This document shows, piece by piece, positions 62,689-64,000 of a DNA stretch of 64,000 nucleotides; position 1 is the stretch's first letter, and every line of letters begins with the position of its first letter. Source of the stretch: Paraspadella gotoi (Eukaryota; Animalia; Chaetognatha). A program made the translations under genes and the position numbers. The DNA lies in the NCBI GenBank assembly GCA_051294375.1, contig CM119267.1, positions 18,392,992 to 18,456,991 of the forward strand, read 5' to 3'. Below the pieces are notes generated by a model. That model made no database searches and had not been told where the DNA came from. It was given only the letters and a program-made list of their open reading frames with translations.

Positions 62689-64000
62689 TCATTTCGGTTC
62701 ATCCGTTGATCTACAAATATAATTCAAAATAAAAAATCGTCTATTAGAACAAATTGACGTCATTTCGCCCTTACAAGCATGAAAAAAATTGAACTACGTA
62801 AAAATATATAGTCGGGCATTGCCTAGGTACACCCCGCCTATAAGCATGACTCTTTCAGTTGTGACCCGGTGGCTCATTGAGTAAAGCCATCAGCTCATGA
62901 CCACTAGGTACCGGGTTCAATCCCAACCTGGTACCTACCCTGCGGGAAGAGTGAGGACGGCCGTAAGCCGCCTTGAGGGCATGGCAAACCCTCAAGCCTG
63001 GTTCCAAGCCCAGGACCCGTTCCATGTCTGCTAGAGGGGGTTATAGAAGTTACGGATAGTCATCTTCTGCCCACTTAGCGCCTTATCCACAAATATATTT
63101 TTAAAGCTCTTTCTACTAATTATAGTAAATCATAGGCTTTAACATCAATATGGTTTATTTTTATTTGGTAATTGACTTACTCGTCAACGCCCAATTCGCC
63201 GCAATCGTTAATTACTATCGCTTTTGACGTCGTCCCGTTTTGGCAACCCATCTTTTCAAGTTCTCTCACGACTTCCATCCCGGTAACGACCTGCGAAGAA
63301 ATAAAAATGATCGATCCTTCTGTGTGAACGGTTTGTAAGGATTTTCTAACTTATGAAGCCACGTTTGTGAAGAATATAAAATGAAAAATTGTTAAACAAA
63401 TTTTGCAGATATCACAAATGGCGATTTACGATTTCTATACTCACTTGACCAAAAACAACGTGTTTTCCGTCTAGCCAAGGTGTTTTAGTGGTACAGATAA
63501 AAAATTGACTTCCATTAGTGTTGGGACCTGCGTTCGCCATGGACAAAGCTTTGAGGAAGGGGTTGGGGAAATATCATTATCTAACCAATTTTAAAAAATC
63601 GAGTTGTTCTTACCTCCCGGCCCAGTATGTTTTAAGATAAAGTTTTCATCATCAAAACGATTTCCATAGATGCTTTTACCCCCAGTTCCATTTCCTTTCG
63701 TAAAATCTCCTCCTTGTATCATAAATTGAGGAATAATTCGATGAAACTTGCTGCCCTTGTAACCAAAACCTGAGAAAAATATATTTTAATGGTTATTGTA
63801 CTATATCATACGACTGTAAAATCACTAAACGGTTATGACTCTTAATACCTTTTTCACCCGTACATAGCACACGAAAATTCTCTGCAGTAAGAGGAACGAT
63901 GTCCTTAAAAGCACAAAAATTAGAAGCAACATGATATATATATTATATATGCTATAATAGTATGAAATTAATTGTTACCTTTCTCAATTCAAACACAATG
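62689..64000 (-). CDS. Cyclophilin-type peptidyl-prolyl isomerase, 3' part; start lies beyond the right edge
   Basis: [82 protein letters not shown]. Ends either unspliced at TAA 63177 or, via donor GTAAGT at 63180, in an exon ending ESTDEPK* at 62689. Confidence 0.92.
62863..62934 (+). mobile_element. tRNA-derived head of a SINE-like element
   Basis: A-box-like TGGCTCATTGAG; B box GGTTCAATCCC at tRNA spacing; CTCATGA loop; imperfect acceptor and anticodon stems. Confidence 0.7.
62942..63020 (+). ncRNA. Twister-like ribozyme, type P5, mini-P1
   Basis: GCGGG-AAGAGU-GA-GGA-CGGCCG-UAA-GCC-GCC-UUGAGGG..CCCUCAA-G-CCUGG-U-UCC-AA-GC-CCAGG-A-CCCGU. T1 GGA:UCC; T2 intact. Predicted cut U62964/A62965. 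Confidence 0.8.

Follow-up and report, generated by a model that had tools for sequence, protein, structure and literature searches.

A tRNA-headed element with a permuted twister and a loop-less palindromic P1 in Paraspadella gotoi, probably a solitary copy of a small non-coding retroposon

The window analysed here, a stretch of 64,000 nucleotides of Paraspadella gotoi DNA, holds a tRNA-like sequence placed directly before a twister-like ribozyme. A first-pass annotation had read this unit, with limits at 62863-63075, as a self-cleaving SINE whose single-copy Pol III transcript cuts itself once. The locus thus raises the question of what kind of element carries such a pairing of promoter and ribozyme, and whether the ribozyme is built to act within one copy or between copies.

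The unit, termed element A, is set in AT-rich DNA, with an ARF gene (Pfam Arf) on one side and a cyclophilin gene on the other, both on the minus strand, in an animal with short introns. The best single-domain matches to the NUBP1 of the window come from animals, at 72-79% identity. It forms a GC-rich island of 281 nt at 62810-63090, flanked by 8-bp AT-rich direct repeats, and these limits replace the narrower ones first given. The features of the locus are as follows.

62802..62809, no strand assigned: left copy of the direct repeat, 8 bp, AT-rich, a candidate target-site duplication
62810..62862, plus strand: leader of element A, 53 nt, before the presumed Pol III start; the GC-rich island begins here
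62863..62934, plus strand: tRNA-derived head, A box at 62870, B box at 62914, cloverleaf broken
62942..63020, plus strand: type-P5-ordered twister core, 7 nt after the tRNA head
63021..63090, plus strand: trailer of element A, 70 nt
63091..63098, no strand assigned: right copy of the direct repeat, 8 bp, running into a T run at 63098
63177..63293, minus strand: last domain-coding exon of cyclophilin, which ends at TAA 63177-79 or splices across 63180-62711

The unit itself has neither a poly-A tail nor a run of four T, and the T run at 63098 is a candidate Pol III terminator outside it. Neither a second copy of A nor a tandem array was found in the 64-kb window. A target-site duplication had been named as a point to check, and an 8-bp direct repeat is indeed present; the probability of finding one by chance is about 9.5% with a loose boundary and 1% with a strict one, for A and for element C (below) alike. 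The host intron proposed at 62711-63180 has donor and acceptor signals, but an in-frame TAA at 63177-63179 is overlapped by the splice donor and the cyclophilin domain is already complete there. This overlap of the cyclophilin stop codon with a perfect splice donor (63177-63182) is an observation in its own right, and the protein may have two alternative C-termini, one four residues past the domain and one seven more.

The sole pair of A box and B box in the window sits in 62863-62934. Against a template of invariant tRNA positions that was registered on this element, the A head matched 19 of 21 positions at canonical spacing, a level reached by 12 of 300 shuffled windows, so that the tRNA-like unit described earlier is borne out. 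Its stems are broken, with 5/7 pairs in the acceptor, 3/4 in the D, 2/5 in the anticodon and 2/5 in the T stem, which rules out a functional tRNA gene at 62863-62934. The 3' half of the head is predicted to refold into a 13-bp hairpin, ARAGORN at default settings called no tRNA at the head, and the Rfam tRNA model did not match there at E<=10. The sequence is a putative tRNA-derived, promoter-like head and not a tRNA gene.

The spacer between head and P5 measures 7 nt and the predicted cut falls 102 nt from the head start, in agreement with the values of about 7 and about 100 nt put forward before. The parts of the core, all on the plus strand, are listed below.

62942-46/63016-20: P5, 5 bp
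62949-52/62967-69: P2, 3 pairs with a bulged A
62953: general-base G
62955-57/63003-05: T1, 3/3 pairs
62958-63: P1, a loop-less palindrome of 6 nt
62964/62965: predicted cut
62970-71/63008-09: T2, 2/2 pairs
62972-96: P3, 8 bp
62997-63001/63010-14: P4, 5 bp

The core has the sequence marks of a twister, namely the catalytic bases (the general-base G with the following A at 62953-54 and the cut-site AA at 62965-66), the pseudoknots T1 and T2 and the stems P2 and P4, and it is undamaged at all 26 descriptor positions. The twister fold had been called intact. This holds for the core bases and pseudoknots but not for the standard fold, since P1 is loop-less, P2 has three pairs, and the Rfam Twister-P5 model (RF02684) scored A at 16.3 bits (E=1.2) against a gathering score of 37.6, in an alignment where the P1 loop has zero length and the P2 strand lacks one base. 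Element A thus lacks both the gathering score and the cis-closed P1 hairpin of RF02684, and is not filed under that family because its score lies below the cut-off. Nothing in the whole window reached gathering level in Rfam, and hammerhead families were absent from the matches at E<=10.

A generic type-P5 descriptor, which admits P1 regions from 4 to about 40 nt, found two sites in the window (A and a repeat copy, B1, described below), and 54 sites in 2640 shuffled windows (0.02 per window), none of which had a 6-nt palindromic P1. As a control, the same descriptor recovered nine distinct prokaryote or phage twisters in the fetched phage and metagenome loci, one of which (L001) passes the Rfam cut-off. 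The twister core of A is far beyond chance. Two other readings of the core were set aside. A type-P1 arrangement via a downstream GAGGG near 63034 had no P1 or P2 partner on inspection, and the short P2 strand is not a decay deletion, as the same bulged pattern is found in B1 and C and the P2 5' strand is 3 nt long in 5 of the 9 distinct control twisters.

The unusual twister occurs at three more sites in the window, in element C and in copies 1 and 2 of a repeat termed B.

57779-86 and 58015-22: direct repeats of element C, 8 bp, sequence unlike those of A
57787..58014, plus strand: element C, 228 nt, about 5 kb from A and different from it in sequence, with a leader of 46 nt and a trailer of 32 nt that pairs with the leader
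57833-57904: head of element C, tRNA-Gly-like, acceptor stem 7/7
57907-57982: twister of element C, same subtype, predicted cut at 57931/57932, one T1 mismatch
34710..34912, minus strand: repeat B copy 1 (B1), 203 bp, with a twister at 34763-34825 that has no P3
58652..58853, plus strand: repeat B copy 2 (B2), with a 3-nt gap in the P2/general-base strand

A second 19/21 match to the tRNA template, at 57834, has the third twister directly behind it, and these together make up element C. The gap from head to P5 is only 3-7 nt in both A and C. On a 26-point descriptor fixed on A and B before element C was found, A scored 26, B1 26 and C 24; in the shuffled control 2 sites in 850 windows reached 24 and none more. 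All window copies lie below the RF02684 gathering cut-off of 37.6, B1 with 25.8 bits (E=0.0012) and the same two gaps as A, and C with no match to the model. No second copy of C was found in the 64-kb window, and a T4 run at 57995 inside its trailer could halt read-through. B1 and B2 are 93.7% identical, with shared ends and different flanks, and B2 is probably decayed. B1 lies within a probable intron of which 56 nt remain without it, and a tRNA head looked for in B1 was not found.

These copies bear signs of mobility, in the form of two B copies with the same ends in different flanks and of 8-bp direct repeats around A and C; such repeats thus flank two of the four copies and neither copy of B. 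Element C, as a second unit of tRNA head plus twister, supports the mobility of a presumably Pol III-headed, ribozyme-bearing element, and to that extent the earlier reading of A as a self-cleaving SINE is borne out, while its one-cut mechanism is not supported. The unit lengths are 281, 228 and 203 nt and the folding z-scores -2.5, -3.9 and -2.8 for A, C and B, respectively. Pairing between leader and trailer was equalled in 0.05% of 2000 shuffles for C and in 0.8% for B1, whose arms were picked after the fold was known. In A it is not significant (39% of shuffles as good), and the flank pairings pointed out at the outset, although present in the sequence, are not above chance, 48.5% and 39% of shuffles being as good.

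Across the four window cores, 58 of 59 paired cells (98.3%) hold a pair and 9 of 15 pairs are changed on both sides, a count that rests on three independent sequences and leaves out P5, since A is one column out of register there. Among 500 shuffles none reached the paired percentage or the covariation score and one reached the number of doubly changed pairs, and in slid controls the paired fraction dropped to 18-56%. T1, T2 and P1 each covary across the copies, P5 pairs with different sequences in all three families, and A, B1 and C all retain the bulged A in P2; for two of the P4 changes, a difference in stem length (4 against 5 bp) may be the cause instead of substitution. A chance origin of the twister-bearing elements is excluded.

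In all four copies P1 consists of six bases that are self-complementary without a loop, and the hexamer differs between families. This is the oddest trait of the elements, and the first-pass annotation had passed it over. The innermost P1 pair, which is unable to form within one strand, is G-C in three copies (A and B) and C-G in C. The nine control type-P5 twisters all have looped P1 regions, of 16-35 nt, although the scan patterns behind them permitted short ones. Computed folding gave the hexamers no fold in cis and self-pairing in trans of -10.7, -9.1 and -8.3 kcal/mol. When tandem pairs were modelled in silico, the swapped scaffold was favoured over the unswapped one in A (-58.5 vs -47.0 kcal/mol), C (-47.7 vs -40.4) and B1 (-15.6 vs -7.8), a gain of 7-12 kcal/mol that comes to only 4 kcal/mol after the rest of A folds. 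Even in tandem the twister scaffold lies above the minimum-energy fold (-192.6 vs -211.1), with the pseudoknots unscored. In the monomer core the nearest-neighbour model predicts an alternative hairpin that buries the cut site with a probability of 0.91 in A and 0.998 in C. The cleavage in cis that had been envisaged for A is thus disfavoured by the model, in which P1 cannot close in cis. P1 is reported to be dispensable for cleavage in a mini-twister (PMC5408937), and flaws in P1 and P2 are tolerated among natural type-P1 twisters in the accessible part of a study that does not extend to type-P5 (PMC11662667), so that the monomer may cut without a partner.

With a covariance model of the four window copies no fifth one was detected in the window, where the next match scored 10.1 bits, and 38 of 40 fetched loci gave at most 16.9 bits, L008 and L009 being left out as overlaps of L005 and L006. 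The best outside match, at 16.9 bits, is a metagenomic type-P5 twister (L028:617-670) with a bulged-A P2 as in the window elements and a normal looped P1. Pattern scans of viral contigs returned 4, 0, 2, 4, 0 and 0 loci and no member of the palindromic-P1 subtype. A scan of metagenome contigs with a pattern built on A, which is unable to match B or C, returned 25 loci and no subtype member, and one of prokaryote genomes returned five loci, none passing the descriptor. Several of the fetched loci are of separate interest. A phage tRNA-Trp in a small tRNA cluster (L002:381-541, L003:381-676) has a type-P1 twister about 40 nt downstream, which scores 57.2 bits, under a cut-off of 67.2. Six metagenomic loci (L016, L021, L022, L023, L026 and L035) hold type-P5-like twisters with a P3 and unusually paired T2 bases; these fail the descriptor and may be another variant. 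A phage-like contig (L011:596-655 and 1153-1213) carries two near-identical type-P5 twisters on one strand, about 550 nt apart.

If the direct repeats are true duplications, 53 nt (A) and 46 nt (C) lie upstream of the head inside them. Leaders of 46-53 nt so placed mean that A and C are not plain SINE copies, and since the leader lies upstream of the presumed Pol III start, it cannot be supplied by the element's own single-copy Pol III transcript, which excludes the 53 nt in A. Of the marks of a tRNA-derived SINE, A thus has the A/B-box head but, given these leaders and on the same condition, does not start at it. The elements are not filed under classical SINEs. The terminal inverted repeats flush with an 8-bp duplication that mark a hAT-type MITE were not found either. 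A Helenus-type TRIM, as described in the available part of PMC10886601, was rejected, no paired LTRs being seen.

A Pol III promoter joined to a self-cleaving ribozyme is not new; it is the design of Sm-alpha of Schistosoma mansoni, in which, according to the accessible text of PMC6765202, the promoter is followed by a hammerhead in tandem units. As cleavage there puts the promoter at the 3' end of each freed unit, the design depends on tandem copies, and a single copy is a dead end. The likeness to Sm-alpha lies in one short unit with a Pol III promoter and then a self-cleaving ribozyme, predicted in our case; the ribozyme is a hammerhead there and a permuted twister here, and arrays and cleavage are established there, whereas our elements are known from sequence. 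Animal retrozymes are units of 170-400 nt circularised by RtcB in vitro (PMC7229834, as far as available) and are related to Penelope pLTRs in the accessible portion of bioRxiv 10.64898/2026.07.22.740005, a portion in which neither twister nor tRNA is mentioned. With the non-LTR retrozymes of animals (see also PMC5680766) our units have in common that they are non-coding, 170-400 nt long, strongly self-paired and dispersed as monomers with one central ribozyme; in the same partly available sources, some of these retrozymes need dimeric ribozymes and they are linked to Penelope pLTRs. In contrast, they are defined by type I hammerheads and are said to be without promoters of their own (PMC7761336). 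The window units have the size and the self-pairing of retrozymes but no type I hammerhead, and as both Sm-alpha and the non-LTR retrozymes carry hammerheads, our elements are members of neither.

The closest parallel to the P1 palindrome is found among Penelope hammerheads, those with a palindromic short stem III acting as dimers in the text available of PMC6765202. In the dimeric minimal Penelope hammerheads (Lunse et al., as excerpted via PMC6765202 and PMC7761336) the stem beside the cut is a short inter-copy palindrome, as here, and the difference lies in the ribozyme class. In the literature searched, a ribozyme design that pairs between copies was found described only for hammerheads. 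RF02684 has the same strand order, general-base G and A, cut-site AA, T1, T2 and P4, and differs from our elements in their loop-less palindromic P1, bulged-A P2 and, in A and C, P3. Twisters of animal retroelements are, in the accessible parts of PMC8501958 and PMC7761336, type-P1 variants at RTE 5' ends. The T-variant twisters of the Perere-3 RTE (PMC8501958, same limit) likewise combine an altered P1 with an animal retroelement and are active in vitro; they are type-P1 and sit at the element 5' end, where the cut sets the element start, whereas ours are permuted and central. Only three circular permutations of the twister are recorded in the part available of PMC10085705. In the full-text literature searched, which includes few subscription papers, neither a twister with a palindromic P1 nor a twister retrozyme was found described, nor any twister in Naiads.

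A related permuted core was found in Naiads, a group of Penelope-like elements. By-eye reading of four bivalve Naiad consensus sequences (Naiad_Bpla, Mphi, Scon and Mmer by file order; File S5 of PMC8557442, as far as available) placed near each 3' end a P5, a P2 with the general-base strand, an NAA site, a T2, a P3 and a P4 in type-P5 order. The P1 regions of all four contain palindromes and are longer than 6 nt; one has 10 consecutive bases around the general base in common with A, and two have the T2 variant of B. Naiads differ further in being autonomous elements of 3-5 kb without a tRNA head. These four came from a motif search, and 16 of 54 ends were inspected in all, over the last 600 characters or fewer. 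Twelve further 3' ends picked by name gave no such core in their last 600 characters (0/12), some bearing a hammerhead-like or another structured motif instead. In the same file, the 3' ends before Naiad_Sglo, Naiad_Tgra, Naiad_Mcor and Naiad_Ebur carry a different conserved structured motif with a palindrome right after the stop codon, to which no ribozyme class could be assigned by eye. Exact long motifs of A and B were not present in the accessible part of the Naiad supplement. The paper itself, in the text available, states that Naiads lack a canonical hammerhead, does not mention twisters, and reports that several Naiads favour (TA)n targets and that PLE insertions often bear 30-40-bp extensions (PMC8557442). 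No Penelope-like element was identified in the window, and the single reverse transcriptase examined there is that of an LTR element. At window:2127-6479 lies a broken LTR retrotransposon with LTRs at 2127-2305 and 6303-6479 that are 95.6% identical, and with fragments of reverse transcriptase and integrase. Other repeats in the window are AT-rich imperfect palindromes of 150 and 62 bp (window:52755-52904 and 6917-6978), possibly MITE-like, and a region of 22-bp tandem repeats (window:10273-11146) that surrounds an assembly gap of some 305 N and includes a 183-bp block in duplicate.

The head and the core are read directly from the sequence, as are the compensatory changes with which the core recurs in three unrelated units, the P1 palindromes and the leaders. 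From these we consider it more likely than not that element A is a solitary and dead-end copy of a retroposon, small and non-coding, whose tRNA-derived Pol III promoter stands before a permuted twister predicted to act between neighbouring copies, and which is mobilised by a Penelope-like element. Source loci would be head-to-tail arrays, in which Pol III starts in one unit and continues into the next. The P1 palindromes of two successive units would then join as one 6-bp helix, and each cut site would be completed by the general-base, P2 and P5 strands of the other unit; in topology, the swapped form would be a type-P1 twister whose P5 holds the remainder of the unit. Double cleavage would be followed by RtcB-type closure, and a Penelope-like, probably Naiad-type, reverse transcriptase/endonuclease would copy the RNA into AT-rich sites, leaving behind solo copies such as A. 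An insert from such a tandem source would start some 50 nt ahead of its own promoter and have its ribozyme in the centre, and the trailer of one unit and the leader of the next, adjacent in tandem or circular RNA, would fold into a local hairpin. The likely origin of the ribozyme is the 3' repeat of a Penelope-like element. Transcription of the solo copy could stop at the T run at 63098, for an RNA of about 240 nt that is cut once at most. Against the array model stands the lack of a tandem array and of a second A or C in the window.

A rather different origin is conceivable, as SINEs arise standardly by the joining of a tRNA head to the 3' end of a partner element. The units could thus be ordinary SINEs of a Penelope or Naiad partner, with the twister as a passenger and the covariation stemming from three autonomous partners. 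This is the main rival, and we consider it unlikely. It has in its favour, besides that standard origin, the position of the core near Naiad 3' ends and the core damage in B2 and C, and the 30-40-bp extensions of PLE insertions, on the partial text cited above, could explain the leaders. Opposed to it are a core in A that is intact at all 26 descriptor positions, heads that stand only 3-7 nt from P5 in A and C, and, in C, a pairing of leader with trailer that encloses the cassette and is suggestive of selection acting on the RNA of the short unit. The mechanism first proposed, in which a single-copy Pol III transcript is cut once about 100 nt from its 5' end, P5, P2 and T1 hold the halves together, and the RNA, nicked or re-ligated, serves as retrotransposition intermediate, is improbable in our estimate. 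The complete set of catalytic bases, the two pseudoknots, the T run behind the unit and the reported tolerance of type-P1 twisters for P1 loss and P2 flaws (in the accessible text of PMC5408937 and PMC11662667) speak for it, but it leaves unexplained both the 46-53-nt leaders inside direct repeats and three different self-complementary P1 hexamers, and it has to contend with the predicted burial of the cut site in the monomers of A and C. Nor does one cut give a circle: RtcB ligation of its ends merely restores the linear RNA, which tells against the circular intermediate suggested for A, and as a circle needs two cut sites, a tandem transcript is needed.

Two further explanations dispense with the retroposon. 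The 8-bp direct repeats of A and C and the inverted arms of C and B1 would fit a DNA-level, MITE-like element with a hAT-style duplication, whose arms enclose a captured cassette of tRNA and ribozyme; yet the arms lie subterminally and asymmetrically, set in by about 10 nt on the left side of C and by 15 nt on the right side of A, they differ between families and are not significant in A, and the conserved ribozyme points to an RNA stage, so that we give this very little credence. Least credible of all is that the units are domesticated single-copy RNAs or chance look-alikes without mobility. A and C are single in the window and are missed by Rfam and ARAGORN at default thresholds, but chance is excluded by the shuffle and covariation tests, and B is repeated with distinct flanks.

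A larger claim can be attached to the preferred reading of a retroposon processed between neighbouring copies, and we advance it tentatively. The P1 palindrome may make this a natural domain-swapped twister with a loop-less P1, which fires when tandem units pair and stays quiet in the monomer circle; it may be the missing self-cleaving motif of some Naiads and the engine of new twister retrozymes, some of which recruited tRNA-derived Pol III promoters more than once. If true, nature would have its own version of Pol III-driven circular RNA production by twister and RtcB. For assays of dimer-gated cleavage and of the formation of circular RNA, the elements offer a natural construct of short length.

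Twisters are widespread and have few assigned jobs, and here an uncatalogued subtype occurs four times in 64 kb with compensatory changes. As Rfam thresholds miss all four copies, the subtype may be common and overlooked in invertebrate genomes. If the P1 palindrome works between copies, twisters would have reached independently the solution of the dimeric hammerheads, which cuts multimers and spares the circle, and this would offer a candidate answer to how tandem RNA is processed in Naiads, which are reported, in the available text of their description, to be without canonical hammerheads.
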